Part shown: piece by piece, positions 35,187 through 46,035 of the stretch
How the letters are laid out: every line of letters starts with the position of its first letter
Position numbering within the stretch: the stretch's first letter is position 1
Assembly (NCBI GenBank): GCA_001004345.1
Contig: LCQW01000006.1
Span: forward strand, 656 to 64,655
DNA: 64,000 bases
Origin: Candidatus Kaiserbacteria bacterium GW2011_GWA2_52_12
GTDB taxonomy: Bacteria > Patescibacteriota > Minisyncoccia > Phycocordibacterales > UBA2100
Direction: 5' to 3'
Translations under genes and position numbers: made by a program
The notes under the pieces: model-generated
What the model was told of the DNA's origin: nothing
The model's database searches: none
The model's input: only the letters and a program-made list of their open reading frames with translations

Positions 35187-35356
35187 TACTCGGGTCTCGG
35201 TTGCTTCGGGGTATATCATGTGCGCGCTCACCCCTGTCTCAATCGACTCGCGCAAGCATCCGGCAAGCAGAATCTTTCGGGGAGTACGGCGCGTACGCCG
35301 CACTGCATTACCCGTACCTTTAAGCGTACCATAACCGTGTAAGATTTTTCGCGCGA

Positions 35357-35394
35357 ACGCCCCGCCCCCAAATAAATAACTGGGGGCGGGGCGT
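35357..35394. terminator. Perfect 14-bp GC-rich inverted repeat ACGCCCCGCCCCCA-(10 nt)-TGGGGGCGGGGCGT between the MoxR-like gene and the epimerase gene; hairpin without a U-tract
   Basis: Seen in the sequence. It lies 26 nt downstream of the stop codon of the 35420-38368 gene on the minus strand. Confidence 0.4.
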
Positions 35395-35419: not shown

Positions 35420-38368
35420 TCAAGATTCAATGCGGGAGAAGACAGCACCGATGTCGTTCCAAGCGTAGTCAGGCCGGTGCCTGTTCACGTGCGCACCCCC
35501 CGCGTCGGCGTGGCCGAAAGACACAAGGTGGCCGACACCGGAAGGCGTATTGGACCACGTATACTCGTCTGTTAAGAGCCGCTCATTGCGAGATTTTGTC
35601 CCGACAAGGTAACGAAACATCATGTTCGCGGAAGGCTCACGCAAAAGTTGCGATATGGAGAGTTTGGAAAGTTTGTCGGACGCTTCAATAAATCTGTTAC
35701 TATTTTTGTCATCCTTCATTAGGGTTTCAATACCCAACTTTTCGCGTACGAATTGACGCTCCGCTTCTGCGTAGGCAGGGGGGAACGTACCACCGAATGT
35801 CTCCTTGGCATAAGCGATGAGCTTCTCGGTTTGCGGAATATATGAGAGGCTCTTTGTGCCGTTAATCGTTTTGCGCGAAACCACCTGCCACCCGGCCTTA
35901 GGCATTTGCGCCCGTATAGCTGCATATTGGGGACCGGAAAACCATGCGCTTCCGAGCATCTCACCATTTTCGCCGAATTGGTCTTTGTAAAGCCGGAATT
36001 TATTCGGGTTGCCGCTCCTATCCCGACCCTCTACATTGCTCCCGACAAGCTCCGCCATTTTCTCGATAGTCAAAGGCGTTCCATCGGGCATCTTTTCAAC
36101 GACAAGCTGTAACATACAGTCACGCGCTTTGTAGTCTTTGAGTTCCTGTGCTGAGTACGGTACAAGAAATACTTTCTCTGGCGTAAAGCCAAAAGCGTCT
36201 TTTATATCCGCATCTGCCCACAACCGCTCACGCCCGATGGCTCGCTCGGCCGCCTCCACAGTGAGCACGCATTCTTTCGCAAGCTCGGCGAGGAAAGCGT
36301 CCTTACTCAAACTGCGAGCAAGTTCACCGGAGATTAGTATGAGTTCTTCGGGTTTCTCCGCATTCACTCCCGCATACTTAACGCCCTCTTTTTTGAAGGT
36401 CGCACCCGAACGAATCGTGTAATTGAAACGACTTCCCTGAATTGCTCCGATATCATAATCGGTCGGTTTTGCACGTACACGCTCTCCTTTTTCAGTCAAA
36501 TACTCGACGGTCTCCACGGTGCGGGATTCTGATACCTCTCTCGGGATATCCGTGCTGTGCCGCGCAGTCTCTCCTTTGATTTCAAGGGGGCGCGGTACGC
36601 GAGGTGAGAGGTATCCTATATCTAAATTTGTCATCGGTTCCGTGGAGTTCGTAGGGGTTGGAGTCAAGATGCTAAAGTGCTTGAATACCGCTTCCATTTT
36701 CGCCCGATCATTCGGCGGGCATTGCGAGACGAATACGTTCGCTTTGTACGAGAGCCAGTCGGAAAACGTCTTTGCGCGGAGGCTCGGGTCGGCGCTCTCC
36801 ATGCGCGTACCGAATCCTCGCATCCATGAGGAGATTTCCTTCAATGTCATGGTCGAAGATTGCAACGTCAAAGGTTCTGCATTTGGGGCATTTTGAGCGA
36901 CGACGGCATTCGTAGTCGGATTGAATCGCAAAAGCGACGGTTCGAGCCGCGCGCGTTCGTCCGGATTGTCAGCCGTATATGAATCCTGTATCGCGCGGAT
37001 CGCATTCGCGACGCGCCATAGAGTACCGTGTCGAGCATCGTTCGACGTGGCTATGATTTTTTCTTCAGCAGCGATATCTCTGCCGTCCTTAGTTTTTTGA
37101 TTCACAACCTCTTTGCGTTCGTAGGCGGGCGCGAGCTCGGATTTTGGAATAGAGATATATTTCTTGTCATCCATGAGTGTCGCGAGCATAAATTCGTAGA
37201 GCTCAGGATTCTCCGGACTTTGCGGCGGGTAGTCCACCTTGATCTCGGCGAATTCACGCTCAAGAGCGGGAGGAAGTTTGTCGAGTTGATGACGCGCTCC
37301 GGCAGGGTTCGTCGTGGCAATCAGCGAGAACCCTTTCAGAACAGGATGCTGAACGTTTTCATGCATCTGATCACCCGGCTTCTTCTGCGCAATCTCTTTG
37401 ATGAGGCCGAATGTTTTGTCGAAGTTGATTTTGAGCAATTCGTCCGCTCGTACAATGCGGCCGTGCATGCGCTCCGGTCGATTATCCCGCGAGGATACAA
37501 AGCCCGTGGCCGCGCGGGAGGCGGCACCATAGCGCAGATAGCTTCCTCGCTCGTCAATCTCTTTATCGGCAATCAAGTCATGTTCTCCAGTCGAGGACGT
37601 GCAAGCAATCTTTACGCATTTATCATCAGTCAACTGTTCCGCAACCGCGTCCGCTTGTTCGGACTTGCCGACGCCCGGCTCGCCGACAAGGAGCGGAAAA
37701 CGTCCGTTGGACAGTGCCGCACGAATCGAGCGATGAATATCGAGGCGCGACGGAAGCCATGCGAACCCCTTCTCGGCCTCATCGTGGTAGCGTCCAAGTG
37801 TCTCATGCATAAGGTGTGCCGCGACGTCGGTCTTGTCTGCCGTCTTCTCTTCACCTTCAAGCCGCGTCAGTGCGTCGCGCTCAACGCGCATCTTCGCAAG
37901 ATCGCCCGCCGACTCCATAAGCTCTTCGCGCGTCAGCTTCTCCGACGCAGGGCCTTTCACGTCTCCGATAAAAAGTTTGTGTTCAAGTTCGCGATGCCGC
38001 AAAGATAAAGCTCCCGTAGAACGAGTCATTTGCGCGATATTGCCATATAGCGGAGAACGTTCGGTGCCTTTTATCTCCGCGCGACCTCGCGCGAACACTC
38101 GTGCAAACGTATTGCGGGTCTCTTTGTCGGACGCAAGCGCGGAGGCGCGGGAACGCAAAAGGGCCACGTCTTCCGATTCCGATTTCTCAGAACCCGCCAT
38201 GCGTACGAACGAGACAATATCGTAGAGTTCCTGTGCTTTTTCCCCAGCAGACATCGAGGAAAAGCGCTTTGGTAACTGCGCTTCGAGAGCATCTTTGAGA
38301 AAACGATCCATCCACCGCTCGACGACTGCTTCAGGCTTCTTGAGTGTGGCGGCTTCTTTCATCATCAT
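35420..38368 (-). CDS. Large MoxR-family AAA+ ATPase (AAA_5-type) with long N- and C-terminal extensions
   Basis: Walker A LLVGEPGVGKSE, Walker-B-like RADELLKINF, and LIATTNP sensor region. Start moved to the MMMKEAATL ATGs (38362-38368) to avoid a 116-nt overlap with the upstream gene. Confidence 0.6.
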   Translation of the reverse strand: MMMKEAATLKKPEAVVERWMDRFLKDALEAQLPKRFSSMSAGEKAQELYDIVSFVRMAGSEKSESEDVALLRSRASALASDKETRNTFARVFARGRAEIKGTERSPLYGNIAQMTRSTGALSLRHRELEHKLFIGDVKGPASEKLTREELMESAGDLAKMRVERDALTRLEGEEKTADKTDVAAHLMHETLGRYHDEAEKGFAWLPSRLDIHRSIRAALSNGRFPLLVGEPGVGKSEQADAVAEQLTDDKCVKIACTSSTGEHDLIADKEIDERGSYLRYGAASRAATGFVSSRDNRPERMHGRIVRADELLKINFDKTFGLIKEIAQKKPGDQMHENVQHPVLKGFSLIATTNPAGARHQLDKLPPALEREFAEIKVDYPPQSPENPELYEFMLATLMDDKKYISIPKSELAPAYERKEVVNQKTKDGRDIAAEEKIIATSNDARHGTLWRVANAIRAIQDSYTADNPDERARLEPSLLRFNPTTNAVVAQNAPNAEPLTLQSSTMTLKEISSWMRGFGTRMESADPSLRAKTFSDWLSYKANVFVSQCPPNDRAKMEAVFKHFSILTPTPTNSTEPMTNLDIGYLSPRVPRPLEIKGETARHSTDIPREVSESRTVETVEYLTEKGERVRAKPTDYDIGAIQGSRFNYTIRSGATFKKEGVKYAGVNAEKPEELILISGELARSLSKDAFLAELAKECVLTVEAAERAIGRERLWADADIKDAFGFTPEKVFLVPYSAQELKDYKARDCMLQLVVEKMPDGTPLTIEKMAELVGSNVEGRDRSGNPNKFRLYKDQFGENGEMLGSAWFSGPQYAAIRAQMPKAGWQVVSRKTINGTKSLSYIPQTEKLIAYAKETFGGTFPPAYAEAERQFVREKLGIETLMKDDKNSNRFIEASDKLSKLSISQLLREPSANMMFRYLVGTKSRNERLLTDEYTWSNTPSGVGHLVSFGHADAGGAHVNRHRPDYAWNDIGAVFSRIES

Positions 38369-38375
38369 AAATGTA

Positions 38376-40895
38376 TCACGCCGAACCGGCCTCTTGGAAC
38401 CCTCCCACAAGCGCCTTGAGAGCATACTCAAAGCGCCCTTTTCCCTTGTCTGGGAAGAGCTTGAGCGCTTCCGAGACGATATGGCGAGCAACGATAACGG
38501 GTAAATGATTCAAATCCTTCACAGTTTCACCGCGACTTTTAGGAGTTGTGTATATTTGTTTGACCGATTTTGCGGCATCGGTGAGCCCCAAGCCGACCAC
38601 GACTGCGCCCGTGTTGCCGAGTTCTTCCGCGAGCGCGTGGACGCGGGCCGGATCGTCCGGTTCGCCGTCGCTCATGGGGAGCACGATACGCAAGCGGTTA
38701 TCTTTCTTTCCACCCGCTTCCGTCGCTTTAATATCCTCCTTGATCTCGCGGAGCACAGTTTGGAGGGCTTGCACGTCGCCGTTGCCGCTTCCCTGATTGC
38801 CAAGGCTTCGCCACAAAGTGACCTTCTCCGCCGCCTCGAATCGAGGCGAGAGCGGTTTGTCAACGTCAAGTTCCTTGACGCCTCCGCCCCTGAAAGAAAG
38901 AACTTCCGTGCGTACATCGAGAGAACTTCCGGGAAGCGCCGCAACGCCCGAGCGAACCAACTTTTCTTGAAAACGGTGAAGCGCCGAGAGAAGAAGATAA
39001 TTCATTGTGCGCTGAGTTTTCCATTTCACGGCACCGTCAACCGTTTGCGACATCGAGCCCGATTTGTCGTCAATGAACCACACGTCAAATCCCCCGAAAA
39101 GTTGTTCCTCTTTGGGCGTTTCTGTTTCTTTGATTCGCGAGCGAGGGTCTTGTTCGCCCGACACCGCTCCGATATGTTGCGCGACGATATCATCGATGCG
39201 TTCACCCCCTTCGCGTCGGCGCAGAGGACCAGAATATTCCGATTCGAAAGAGAGGCGAGAATCGACAATCATATCGAAAAGCTGCGAGAGAGCATTAGTC
39301 ACCTTACGACCATCTTTCAGCCGAGCATCTTCGGCTTGTGCAATCTCCCGCGCGATGTCCCGTGCTTCAGAAAGTTCTATTTTTGCCTCCTCGGCAAGCG
39401 CACGCTCTTCGGGAGTATACGAAAGTTCTTCAACGTGTTTCGCCAACTCTTCCTCAAGTTTTTGTAGCTGCTCATCAGTCGGGCCGACATCTTCTTGCCC
39501 GCCATAGTCACCGGGAGCGGATTCGCCGCCCTCTCCTTCTTGATCGATCTGACTATTGAAGATGGGATCGCCCGGAGGCGTCGCATCAACGCGCATCCAT
39601 TCTCTCGCTTGGTCATCCCATATCTCGCTCCATGCGTGGCCCGTGCCGCTGTGAATCATGCTCGTCCCTTTTTCATTTTTGCCCTTCACCATATGACCGA
39701 CGACGTGACGCGCTGGAACGCCGAGCCGCGCGCAGAGGGCCGCGAAGTAGGTGTTTCCAACATCGCAATCGGCCTTCTTATGCGTGTCTATTGCAAAGCA
39801 GTAGCCGTTCGGATCTGAACGATACGTGTTGTTGAATTGGCTTTCGTTGGAATATTGGAGCCGTTGCATCACATAGCGCGCAAGAGCAAATCCTCTCGCG
39901 CGATTGCCTTGTTTCGTTTTCTCTATTTCCGCGATTACGCGCTCGGTGTCTTCGGTGAAGCGTTCGGGAAATGCAGCAGACGCTTCCGGAGCTCCAATTT
40001 TCAGACGCGACGCTTCCGATTTCACTCGCGTCCAAGCACCGCGCTGCACATTAGCGGAAATGGTAATAGAGTCGTTCTCTGCATTGCCTTGTCCGAGTTT
40101 GTCTTCTTCATACGCATAATCGCTCTGCTTCCACACCTTGCGCTCGGGATCCCAAGTATCGAACGACTGTTCGCGGAAGTATCCGCCATATGCTGGATTG
40201 ATTTTCCAGATCGCAGTAGGTTTCTCTCCTTTCTCAAGGCGGCTCATCTCATCCATTGAAGGCTCGCTCTCCTCGCGTGCCGGAGGAGGGATTGGATCGT
40301 CCGATGGCTTCTCGCGCACTTCTCCCTGTTCTTGTTCTTTCGTGCGATCACGTTCGTCGAGGACATTCGCCCCCGCAATGTAATTATCAAATCGTTTCGT
40401 CAGATATTCTGTCTTGCTGGCGAGCGGCGCACGAGGATTTAGAAGGTACTGCAAATCTCCGCTTTCGGAGAGTTCCGCTAATTTGCCTTTGGTCATTTCA
40501 AATCGCGGTTCGTATGGAGTCCCGTCAACTTGCGAAAGAATGCCTCGAAAGAGATCTGTCGCGCGAGGAGATAATTGGCGGACGGTTGCGGAAAGTCGAT
40601 CAGCGAGAAGTCCCGCCAGTGCGCTCCGCGCGCTCTGCGGCATACGCGCGGCACCTAGCTCCGAAAACTCCTCGAAGAGTCGATAGAACGAGCGAGCAGG
40701 AGAGGTGCTTCCTCTTTGACGCCAATCATTCAAGGCCCGCACGCGGTCGTACTGATCTTTTGCGGATTCGTATTCTTCAATCTGGAGGGCACCAAATAAT
40801 TGTCGTTTTGAAAGAATATCGTCCAATTTTTGCGAGAGAGGCTCAGTTTTCGTATCGAGCGATTTTAGTATTTCAAAATCTCTAGCTTTTGGCAT
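38376..40895 (-). CDS. Large protein with a transglutaminase-like cysteine-protease core and a C-terminal von Willebrand factor A (vWA) domain
   Basis: TGase triad motifs GYCFAID (Cys), GTGHAWSEIW (His) and WMRVDATPP (Asp). vWA MIDAS motif DDKSGSM. Long acidic coiled-coil-like linker. Confidence 0.6.
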   Translation of the reverse strand: MPKARDFEILKSLDTKTEPLSQKLDDILSKRQLFGALQIEEYESAKDQYDRVRALNDWRQRGSTSPARSFYRLFEEFSELGAARMPQSARSALAGLLADRLSATVRQLSPRATDLFRGILSQVDGTPYEPRFEMTKGKLAELSESGDLQYLLNPRAPLASKTEYLTKRFDNYIAGANVLDERDRTKEQEQGEVREKPSDDPIPPPAREESEPSMDEMSRLEKGEKPTAIWKINPAYGGYFREQSFDTWDPERKVWKQSDYAYEEDKLGQGNAENDSITISANVQRGAWTRVKSEASRLKIGAPEASAAFPERFTEDTERVIAEIEKTKQGNRARGFALARYVMQRLQYSNESQFNNTYRSDPNGYCFAIDTHKKADCDVGNTYFAALCARLGVPARHVVGHMVKGKNEKGTSMIHSGTGHAWSEIWDDQAREWMRVDATPPGDPIFNSQIDQEGEGGESAPGDYGGQEDVGPTDEQLQKLEEELAKHVEELSYTPEERALAEEAKIELSEARDIAREIAQAEDARLKDGRKVTNALSQLFDMIVDSRLSFESEYSGPLRRREGGERIDDIVAQHIGAVSGEQDPRSRIKETETPKEEQLFGGFDVWFIDDKSGSMSQTVDGAVKWKTQRTMNYLLLSALHRFQEKLVRSGVAALPGSSLDVRTEVLSFRGGGVKELDVDKPLSPRFEAAEKVTLWRSLGNQGSGNGDVQALQTVLREIKEDIKATEAGGKKDNRLRIVLPMSDGEPDDPARVHALAEELGNTGAVVVGLGLTDAAKSVKQIYTTPKSRGETVKDLNHLPVIVARHIVSEALKLFPDKGKGRFEYALKALVGGFQEAGSA

Positions 40896-44247: not shown

Positions 44248-46035
44248 ATGGACACTGCCGCTGCAGGTGAATCGAAAATGGATCGAGCGTGGTTGCCACT
44301 TTGCCTCGGAGTTATTTTCCTACTTTCACTCATACCGCTTGTTCACCTGCTCTATGCCGGCGCCGGTATTCAAGGAATAGCCGCCCCGGCGTATCTGGAC
44401 GAATACTATTCTCCGTTGATACGCGAAGTGGTAGATGGCAACCCGTTTGTCGGTAACCCATGGTTTTTTGAGCATCGTGATGATATCAGCCCAAGGCCCA
44501 TCCTTCCGTATTGGATCTCTGCACTTCCTCTTTTGGCTGGTTTGCCGCTTGCGCTCGCCGTCGCGATGAATTTTTCACTGTGGTCACTCACATTTGGACT
44601 CATACTGTATTTTTTCTTCCGGCGGTTCGGATTACCGCCCGCATGGAGCGGACTTGGAGCGATCTACATATACATACAAACGTACACCTTCCTTCTCCGA
44701 CCTGTTTCGATGCAACTCGTATATCCGGCGTTCCTACTCCTTATTCTGGTCTTCTCACAATGGTGGAAACAACCTGAAGATCGATACCGCAGCGCATTTC
44801 TCGGACTTACCGCAGCGCTTACCTTTTATATGTACGGATTCCTGTATCAGATCTCGGTAGTTTTTCTCGGTCTCGTATTCATCTTTCTGCTGTATCAGCG
44901 CGACTGGAAGAGGGTGGTGCATGCGCTCATCGTCGGCGCTTGGACGGGAGTTTTGATCATCCCGTTCATCATTACAACGCTCGCAGAGGTCAATGATCCA
45001 CATTATCTCGAAGCGATGATGCGTACAGGGCTCGTATTCACGCACTCTCTCAACGTACTAGGGGCACGTCAGGCAGTAGCTGCGATTACTTTTATCAGTT
45101 CAGTATATCTTGCTTCCCGTTGGATATTTCGTACTCACGAGTACGGAAAAACTTCATCTATGGTGCAGTTTCTCCTTCTGGGACCTGCGATCGTGATCGT
45201 TTCCTTGTCCAATGTAATTACCGGAATGGATGCCGAGACCAGCAATCACATGGCCCGGTTTTTTAATCTATGGCTCATCTTGAGCAGTATCGTCATCGCA
45301 TATGCGCTTTTTACCGCACGCAGACAGATCTCGCAACTCACCGTACCGAAAAAAATAATGCTCTCGATATTTGTGATATTTGTTTTATATCTGAATAATG
45401 CCTTCCCTCTAACCCCCCTGACCGCAAGCTTCCTTATGGGCAATGAACGTGCCGCCATACAAGAGGACAACGCCATGTTGCCGGCATTGCAATGGCTCGA
45501 CGCGCAGTCGCTTCAGCCGCATGTGGTGTGGATAGACCCGCACAATTCCCGACTCAACAGTATCCTTCCCATCTATACAAAGCATTATGAACTTCTCGGA
45601 AATGACGGTGTAATGCAATTGGTTTCTTCTGACGAAGTGGAGGAGCGCTACCTCGTGGCTTCAGCCACTACTGATGTAACTGAAAAGAGCATCGCAGCGG
45701 ATATTTGGCTCTGGGGGTTTGGCGGGTATGCTATCGATACGCCCAACACGAAAAACAGGGAGGTACACCAGTGCACGTTGCTTCATCTCTACTTGCTTGG
45801 GATTTCCTGCGGACAAAGCACCGATGCTTCGAAACTCTATGCGCCGCTCGTTGCGAGTATGTACGCGAGATATACTCGAGACATACAGCCACATCTTGGC
45901 GAGGAACTAAAAAAATTTCATGTCACGTACATTATAAAAGACACCCAGACTGACACCCAATTTCATCCAGAACGTTTAAAAAATGTACAGCAGGTGTATT
46001 CAGACGGACGATACCTCATATACAAAGTCATCTGA
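44248..46035 (+). CDS. Polytopic membrane protein with a C-terminal soluble domain (candidate GT-C-like glycosyltransferase or polymerase)
   Basis: More than 10 predicted TM segments. No confident motif. Confidence 0.3.
   Translation: MDTAAAGESKMDRAWLPLCLGVIFLLSLIPLVHLLYAGAGIQGIAAPAYLDEYYSPLIREVVDGNPFVGNPWFFEHRDDISPRPILPYWISALPLLAGLPLALAVAMNFSLWSLTFGLILYFFFRRFGLPPAWSGLGAIYIYIQTYTFLLRPVSMQLVYPAFLLLILVFSQWWKQPEDRYRSAFLGLTAALTFYMYGFLYQISVVFLGLVFIFLLYQRDWKRVVHALIVGAWTGVLIIPFIITTLAEVNDPHYLEAMMRTGLVFTHSLNVLGARQAVAAITFISSVYLASRWIFRTHEYGKTSSMVQFLLLGPAIVIVSLSNVITGMDAETSNHMARFFNLWLILSSIVIAYALFTARRQISQLTVPKKIMLSIFVIFVLYLNNAFPLTPLTASFLMGNERAAIQEDNAMLPALQWLDAQSLQPHVVWIDPHNSRLNSILPIYTKHYELLGNDGVMQLVSSDEVEERYLVASATTDVTEKSIAADIWLWGFGGYAIDTPNTKNREVHQCTLLHLYLLGISCGQSTDASKLYAPLVASMYARYTRDIQPHLGEELKKFHVTYIIKDTQTDTQFHPERLKNVQQVYSDGRYLIYKVI

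Follow-up and report, generated by a model that had tools for sequence, protein, structure and literature searches.

The window analysed here, a 64,000-nucleotide stretch of contig LCQW01000006.1 of Candidatus Kaiserbacteria bacterium GW2011_GWA2_52_12, carries two large, adjacent, co-oriented genes on the minus strand (Table 1). The upstream one (gene 1) encodes a protein with a transglutaminase-like core and a von Willebrand factor type A (vWA) domain, and the downstream one (gene 2) encodes an AAA_5 ATPase. We show that the two genes form the core of a module found only in Patescibacteria (also called candidate phyla radiation or CPR), and that gene 2 belongs to the CPR class of AAA-fused variable proteins targeted by diversity-generating retroelements (DGRs). 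As judged from sequence comparison, the gene in the window is a former, or remote, DGR target. With modest confidence, we take the pair to be an orphaned copy of a mobile cytoplasmic system that would combine a DGR-programmed binder, an AAA+ motor and a vWA-tethered thiol enzyme, the likeliest role being anti-invader conflict. A sequence-only reading of the same DNA had recognised the two large adjacent genes and named their domains correctly, but overlooked the variable repeat and the DGR link.

Related loci were collected with two profiles. That of the transglutaminase-vWA protein retrieved 45 loci from 185,579 species genomes, a patchy distribution, and that of the ATPase, used as the reciprocal test, retrieved 49 metagenome loci; 78 loci remained after removal of redundancy. 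Whichever profile had retrieved the locus, the transglutaminase-vWA gene preceded the ATPase gene in essentially every locus with sufficient flanking sequence (exceptions: L070, L089 and L094). The earlier proposal of a MoxR-vWA pairing was upheld, and the transglutaminase-vWA protein is a constant, obligate partner of the AAA-type target.

Neighbourhood look-ups of related loci placed a bAvd gene directly after the ATPase gene. The ATPase gene ends in a stretch of ~115 nt that recurred 390-440 nt downstream, with core mismatches at adenines of the downstream copy; adenine-confined mismatches between such repeats are the signature of a DGR, the downstream copy being the template repeat (TR) and the copy in the gene the variable repeat (VR). 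Among the genome and look-up loci (L001-L048), 13 were listed with TR/VR pairs in which 79-100% of the mismatches fell at TR adenines, and further pairs were found among the metagenome loci. The ATPases exist in two forms, one long (~960-1100 aa) and one short (~680-815 aa), and their sequences diverge past the motif IGYLSPRVPRP. The variable repeat of long-form loci makes up the 3' end of the ATPase gene, and the cassette comes after it; DGR genes lay directly after the AAA gene in 12 of 14 non-redundant long-form loci with at least 700 nt of downstream sequence. In short-form loci the pair is flanked by the cassette and by one or more separate variable-repeat genes. Because these stand-alone variable proteins share homology with the C-terminal domain of the long-form ATPases, the binder domain must have undergone both fusion and fission. 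A gene with a variable-repeat domain, fused or adjacent, was present in 17 of the 24 non-redundant loci with at least 1.5 kb on both sides, and DGR genes in 15. Over all non-redundant loci, reverse transcriptase (RT) genes were found in 24/78 and bAvd genes in 21/78; many pairs have binder genes but no RT or bAvd gene nearby.

The closest relative of the window pair, with ~80% nucleotide identity, is locus L004 of Kaiserbacteria RIFCSPHIGHO2_01_FULL_54_36, in which the cassette is complete (RVT_1, E 3e-22; bAvd, E 3e-14). The order in L004 is serine recombinase, transglutaminase-vWA gene, AAA gene with variable repeat, hairpin, spacer, template repeat, bAvd/RT, prfB, ftsE, ftsX and pyrG. Aligned with the L004 template, the 3' end of gene 2 showed 80.7% identity and 22 mismatches, 14 of them at the 26 adenines of the template and 8 at its 88 other sites, and the terminal GGCGCTGTCTTCTCCCG was identical in both. 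A template cognate to the window repeat would resemble GGTGACGGCAACCTCGTGAATTTCGGCAACGCC. Homology between the window and L004 ran from 40838 to 35341, resumed for the spacer (35342-35190) and ended at 35190, after which an epimerase gene follows in the window. Blastn (word size 7), tblastn and hidden Markov model searches of the 64-kb window found no TR, RT or bAvd; the orthologous and paralogous loci do possess the components of a DGR. The AAA-epimerase junction lacking the cassette was identical in four other, independent assemblies of the window lineage. A hairpin occupies the position equivalent to that in the window in most other loci checked, and is clear in L002, L004, L007, L009, L011, L013 and L015.

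Population variants differed between the two lineages. In three variants of the window lineage, the variable repeats were identical and differences occurred only elsewhere, the opposite of the sister lineage, in which variants P0122 and P0165 differed at 11 residues, all within aa 946-973, that is, in the variable repeat. Judged from these sequences, diversification is active in the sister lineage. Because homology ends before the template, bAvd and RT, and because the window-lineage variants share identical repeats, the window copy is best regarded as an orphaned target whose variable repeat is frozen and whose specificity is fixed; with 64 kb of the genome in view, a trans-acting DGR elsewhere is a conceivable but improbable alternative.

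The non-coding spacer itself is 93% identical across the two lineages, whose flanking genes are only ~80% identical, and the spacers of other loci have hairpins and sequence blocks in common. The conserved spacer might act as a control element or form a structured segment of the DGR RNA.

The domain order of gene 2 is a helical N-domain (aa 1-220), the AAA+ module, a conserved middle region ending at IGYLSPRVPRP (aa 584-594), a flexible linker (aa 600-616), a beta domain and the C-terminal domain bearing the variable repeat. The AAA_5 assignment, which denotes AAA+ proteins of the MoxR/dynein/midasin/McrB type, was supported by Pfam (aa 226-372; E 2e-14; 54.1 bits against a cut-off of 22) and by the motifs Walker A GEPGVGKS (229-236), Walker B RIVRADEL (D309/E310), sensor-1 TTNP (N354) and R371; residues G232, G234, K235, E310, N354 and R371 were invariant in 36 sequences. 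The predicted structure resembles MoxR proteins, with hairpins at the helix-2 insert (aa 267-280) and before sensor 1 (pre-sensor-1 beta-hairpin, aa 334-342). The protein is thus MoxR-type in structure but not MoxR proper (COG0714, a stand-alone protein of ~300 aa): it has 982 aa, with a 220-aa N-domain and ~500 aa beyond the module, and matched none of the NCBIfam MoxR models. The extensions, which the sequence-only reading took to be unique, are conserved across the family.

The C-terminal domain of gene 2 (class 1) defines a family of its own. An exhaustive representative search returned 544 representatives at E<=1e-3, where an earlier search with the C-terminal domain had given a single match. 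The domain is strictly C-terminal; its members are mostly stand-alone proteins of ~300-360 aa and are otherwise fused to AAA_5 ATPases (AAA_5 was present in 9/9 long members tested). It showed no Pfam match and no PDB sequence match, and whole-model fold searches of gene 2 returned AAA matches only. By hhalign, the class-1 domain and the other variable domain of these loci (class 2) have no homology except in the last ~38 residues.

Two further features of the binder genes were observed. The stand-alone proteins flanking short-form pairs share an N-terminal module of ~60 aa with an invariant Cys (consensus MPSxCEQIKxEYxxLKxLKxEFDxxY...AKELKAELE...WPFE). It is carried by class-2 variable-domain proteins and by paralogues with no recognised variable domain (L003 8713-9966 and 15072-16352; L035 14919-17848; L038 1500-2759 and 7686-8816; L072, L081, L086, L087 and others), and by only 13 of 102 class-1 stand-alone representatives. 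This module could be a common adaptor that docks different binders to the core of ATPase and transglutaminase-vWA protein. Where the pair has no recognised variable domain, as in L067 (7983-10800) and L077 (1767-3702 and 8690-9658), it lies beside two or three paralogous proteins of ~310-330 aa that contain MELQPGAYFKVG and end in IGFRPLIVF. Endings of the GFR type are reminiscent of lectin-fold DGR targets, and these paralogues may represent a third binder class.

Gene 1 encodes, in order, an N-terminal helical region (aa 20-188), a beta region, the transglutaminase/papain-like core, an acidic linker with helices (aa 445-548) and the vWA domain with its metal ion-dependent adhesion site (MIDAS). 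More than 150 full-length relatives were found at 35-55% identity, the named ones being mostly from Patescibacteria lineages. Transglut_core was matched over aa 322-438 (E 5e-13; 49.7 bits against a cut-off of 23). In an alignment of 35 sequences, C377 (KADCDVGNTYF), H420 (GTGHAW) and D437 (RIDATP) were invariant. The catalytic triad anticipated from the sequence thus survived full alignment, His and Asp as named but Cys at a different position: the residue proposed earlier, C366 (GYCFAID), is not conserved, and homologues read GYIAAID or GFAGAVD. With its intact triad, this papain-like core appears to be active. The VWA model of Pfam scored 14.3 bits, under its cut-off of 23.8; nevertheless, the complete MIDAS seen earlier was borne out, as the metal-site residues (DxSxS ... 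T/D ... D) lie on a Rossmann-like vWA fold and the set D610, S612, S614, GNGD and SDG was invariant in the same alignment. Domains of this type are the usual partners of MoxR ATPases.

In the window protein, 43 aa of the beta region are missing, which are kept in the near-identical population variant P0170 (882 aa) and in all homologues. We first read this loss as gene decay, and dropped that reading once it was traced to a scaffold gap and contig break in other assemblies. One assembly has a run of 10 N exactly at 40025/40026 and a third contig starts there; because the N run and the contig break coincide, this point is a probable mis-join. The 839-aa ORF (open reading frame) is therefore probably a collapsed gap, and the true protein would have ~882 aa.

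The stop codon of gene 1 (TGA) is separated by 7 nt from the ATG of gene 2. Gene 2 has 982 aa counted from MMMKE, 1001 aa in the NCBI model and 1023 aa as the maximal ORF; the two longer models begin within 38369-38491 and overlap gene 1. Because homologues begin at the position equivalent to MKMKEAATL, 38368 is the likely start.

Both proteins are soluble and cytoplasmic: neither has a signal peptide or a membrane segment, and no hydrophobic 19-mer exceeded 1.04. The AAA family likewise lacks membrane-like segments, and one transglutaminase-vWA homologue was borderline (hydrophobicity 1.97). Searches of the pair with NCBIfam, PADLOC and PHROGs gave P-loop-level noise and nothing more; with PADLOC, the best E values were 0.023 and 0.032, over the P-loop stretch only, and no curated defence model was matched. 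PDB sequence searches with three profiles gave nothing significant. A weak match to the Fic domain of IbpA (E 0.012) was rejected, as the sequence contains no Fic motif and the model shows an alpha/beta region there.

Beyond the pair, the neighbourhoods of the 78 loci contained no third universally conserved gene, no housekeeping (metal-cofactor) context and, apart from coupling-protein and relaxase-type genes, no recurrent secretion-system genes. A serine recombinase was found in 10/78 loci and a type IV secretion system (T4SS) coupling or relaxase-type protein in 12/78, which suggests that integrative, mobilisable islands carry the DGR module about in Patescibacteria. Among these recurrent neighbours, L002 (1560-5285) encodes a 1241-aa T4SS coupling protein with a fused Replic_Relax domain, and L053 (1631-3178) a large serine recombinase. 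A phage-borne origin was rejected, as no relative was found in the IMG/VR viral contigs.

Among DGR targets in CPR, C-terminal variable domains fused to AAA have been reported to be the most frequent architecture (PMC10907252, citing Paul et al. 2017), and "Midasin"-like UVR4 DGR targets have been described (Wu et al. 2018, PMC5758913). Gene 2 shares with these proteins the phylum, the AAA_5 domain with an extreme C-terminal variable repeat and, in its relatives, the RT/bAvd/TR layout. In the relevant sections of those reports the target is described alone, with neither a function nor a constant transglutaminase-vWA partner; the function of CPR DGR targets was stated to be open (PMC8144416). 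A literature search pairing DGR with transglutaminase, vWA or MoxR, to which Paul et al. 2017 was external, did not find such a CPR partner described. What appears to be new here is the obligate vWA-transglutaminase partner; AAA-fused DGR targets in CPR had already been published, and the window copy differs further in lacking its DGR.

The VMAP/iSTAND ternary systems, whose FGS (C-type lectin) domains are diversified by DGRs (Kaur et al. 2020, PMC7159879; Thiohalocapsa DGRs, PMC10907252), likewise combine a MoxR-type ATPase, a vWA domain, a peptidase-type domain and a DGR-diversified C-terminal binder, and both kinds of system are cytoplasmic, patchy and mobile. However, the module described here has two core genes instead of three and no VMAP/iSTAND component, and neither protein matched the Pfam models of VMAP or the ternary systems. 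Its variable domain lies on the ATPase or stands alone, whereas in VMAP systems it lies at the C-terminus of the vWA component; here the vWA domain forms the C-terminus of gene 1, with the transglutaminase-like domain fused N-terminal to it. The hosts are ultra-small CPR bacteria, in contrast to the multicellular cyanobacteria and actinobacteria that carry VMAP systems. We regard the module as a two-gene analogue or variant of the DGR-linked MoxR-vWA diversifying conflict systems. The sequence-only reading had suggested an NTP-dependent conflict system. The MoxR-vWA parts speak for this, and because the family is physically tied to DGRs, the link to diversifying conflict systems is stronger than first proposed; the domain placement, the missing VMAP or other third gene and the lack of a PADLOC match depart from it.

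Classical MoxR-vWA pairs (NorQ-NorD, CbbQ-CbbO, RavA-ViaA and midasin) are housekeeping remodellers with fixed clients and conserved operons, and have neither an enzyme fused to the vWA domain nor a hypervariable domain. MoxR-DUF58-TgpA operons bring together a MoxR ATPase with a vWA-like and a transglutaminase-like protein. TgpA of Pseudomonas is polytopic in the membrane, has its transglutaminase domain in the periplasm and is encoded separately from the vWA-like DUF58 protein, and no DGR is involved; in the pair studied here, the proteins are soluble and transglutaminase and vWA are fused.

These comparisons suggest how the module may work. In the relatives, the cassette of RT, bAvd and template rewrites the tip of the ATPase or a separately encoded binder, generating new specificities. 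By analogy with NorQ-NorD, CbbQ-CbbO and midasin, the ATPase ring would display the hypervariable binder domains, and the vWA/MIDAS domain would dock the transglutaminase-like enzyme onto the ring or the captured protein. Capture of a ligand and ATP hydrolysis could then deliver or expose the ligand to the thiol enzyme, or switch the enzyme on, and the enzyme might cleave, deamidate or cross-link the ligand. Because the machine is cytoplasmic, hypervariable, patchy and mobile, its most likely role would be to recognise and neutralise fast-evolving intracellular invaders such as phage or mobile-element proteins. The broader proposal, that CPR bacteria possess a mobile, two-gene intracellular "programmable receptor" in which DGR-written tips on a MoxR-type ring, or adaptor-tagged binders, pass their captures to a vWA-tethered transglutaminase or protease, is put forward tentatively.

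Several points weigh against the anti-invader reading. The diversifying part is absent from the window, so this copy may be decaying or serve another role. About a quarter of the well-flanked loci have neither a recognised variable domain nor a DGR. Searches with Pfam, PDB sequences and whole models did not establish a C-type lectin fold for the variable domain, PADLOC gave no match for the pair, and a VMAP-like third gene is absent across the 78 loci. We infer the defence role from analogy and context, and the contacts proposed between transglutaminase core, vWA domain and ATPase are putative ones taken from the MoxR-vWA paradigm. Finally, as CPR bacteria are episymbionts, the ligands could come from host cells and not from phage.

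The last point leads to a less probable alternative, in which an unchanged mechanism would serve to track proteins of the episymbiont's bacterial host, or of recipients of the island, with the thiol enzyme acting on what the binder recognises. In CPR, where DGRs are enriched, a part in host interaction has been proposed for them (PMC10907252, PMC8144416), and the module rides on islands of the recombinase or conjugation type. However, both proteins are soluble and lack secretion signals, one of them depends on ATP, and the only recurrent neighbours related to secretion systems are the coupling-protein and relaxase-type genes.

It is rather improbable that the window copy is not orphaned and that a DGR at another place in the genome still diversifies its repeat in trans. 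Remote targets of DGRs are known (PMC7159879), and the conserved 3' end of the repeat, the hairpin and the spacer remnant have all survived. Against this stand the lack of DGR components throughout the window, the identical repeats of the three population variants and the same cassette-less junction in four other assemblies.

Still less probably, the pair serves the retroelement or the island itself, for example in cDNA integration or island transfer. It is tightly linked to RT/bAvd/TR and to recombinase and coupling-protein genes; nevertheless, what is diversified in long-form loci is the ATPase itself, and many pairs with binder genes have no RT or bAvd gene nearby. Known DGR accessory factors are small nucleic-acid-binding proteins.

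A housekeeping chaperone, or the surface glycan or S-layer maturation and cross-linking machine offered earlier as the alternative, is very unlikely and largely refuted by the unconserved context: the pair does lie within a glycan-biosynthesis cluster, as first noted, between same-strand AT3-SGNH acyltransferase and epimerase genes, and classical MoxR-vWA pairs are assembly chaperones, but this setting is peculiar to the window lineage, the sister module sits between a serine recombinase and prfB/ftsEX/pyrG, neighbourhoods vary over the patchily distributed loci, export signals are lacking, and a DGR link would be out of place in a housekeeping chaperone.

For AAA-type DGR targets, the obligate vWA-transglutaminase partner, the swapping of fused and stand-alone binders and the soluble assembly give a definite model that lends itself to testing, that of a MoxR-vWA machine in the cytoplasm whose output is a thiol enzyme. 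The theme of diversifying NTP-dependent conflict would thereby extend from multicellular bacteria to ultra-small episymbionts. If the "programmable receptor" proposal is true, the smallest known bacteria would possess anticipatory recognition, immune-like or host-manipulating, that is mechanistically distinct from the three-gene VMAP systems and would explain what the abundant CPR DGR targets are for. The window itself is of more modest value, as a cassette-deleted orphan that can serve mainly as a natural "frozen" control.

Table 1. Positions of the two genes, their domains and the DGR-related remnants in the window
Feature	Position	Strand	Basis or remark
Gene 1, transglutaminase-like + vWA/MIDAS protein	38376-40895	-	ORF, Pfam, alignment; 839 aa as assembled
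Probable assembly mis-join (collapsed scaffold gap)	40025/40026	-	Comparison with P0170 and other assemblies
Transglutaminase-like core, aa 315-440	39576-39953	-	Pfam and alignment
Predicted triad codons	C377 39765-39767; H420 39636-39638; D437 39585-39587	-	Coordinates checked by translation
vWA domain, aa 600-835	38391-39098	-	MIDAS DKSGS at 39054-39068
Gene 2, AAA_5 ATPase of the DGR variable-protein class, 982 aa	35420-38368	-	ORF, Pfam, alignment, model
AAA+ module, aa 220-480	36929-37711	-	Walker A at 37661-37684
C-terminal 292-aa domain (class 1), bears the variable repeat	35423-36298	-	Profile search
Fossil DGR variable repeat, peptide TPSGVGHLVSFGHADAGGAHVNRHRPDYAWNDIGAVFSR	35433-35546	-	Homologous to the L004 template repeat
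GC-rich hairpin, 13-bp stem, just past the gene 2 stop; no T-run after it	35357-35394	-	
Spacer remnant (between variable and template repeats)	35190-35342	-	93% identical to L004 9533-9685

Elsewhere in the window, tRNA and Rfam scans gave no matches. A 595-aa ORF with no Pfam match (44248-46035, plus strand) lies among glycosyltransferase genes. Inside the glycan cluster there is also an AbiEii-type toxin gene (25478-26191, minus strand; Pfam E 7e-17), and upstream of and overlapping it a 191-aa ORF with no family match (26181-26756, minus strand); the two likely form a toxin-antitoxin pair.

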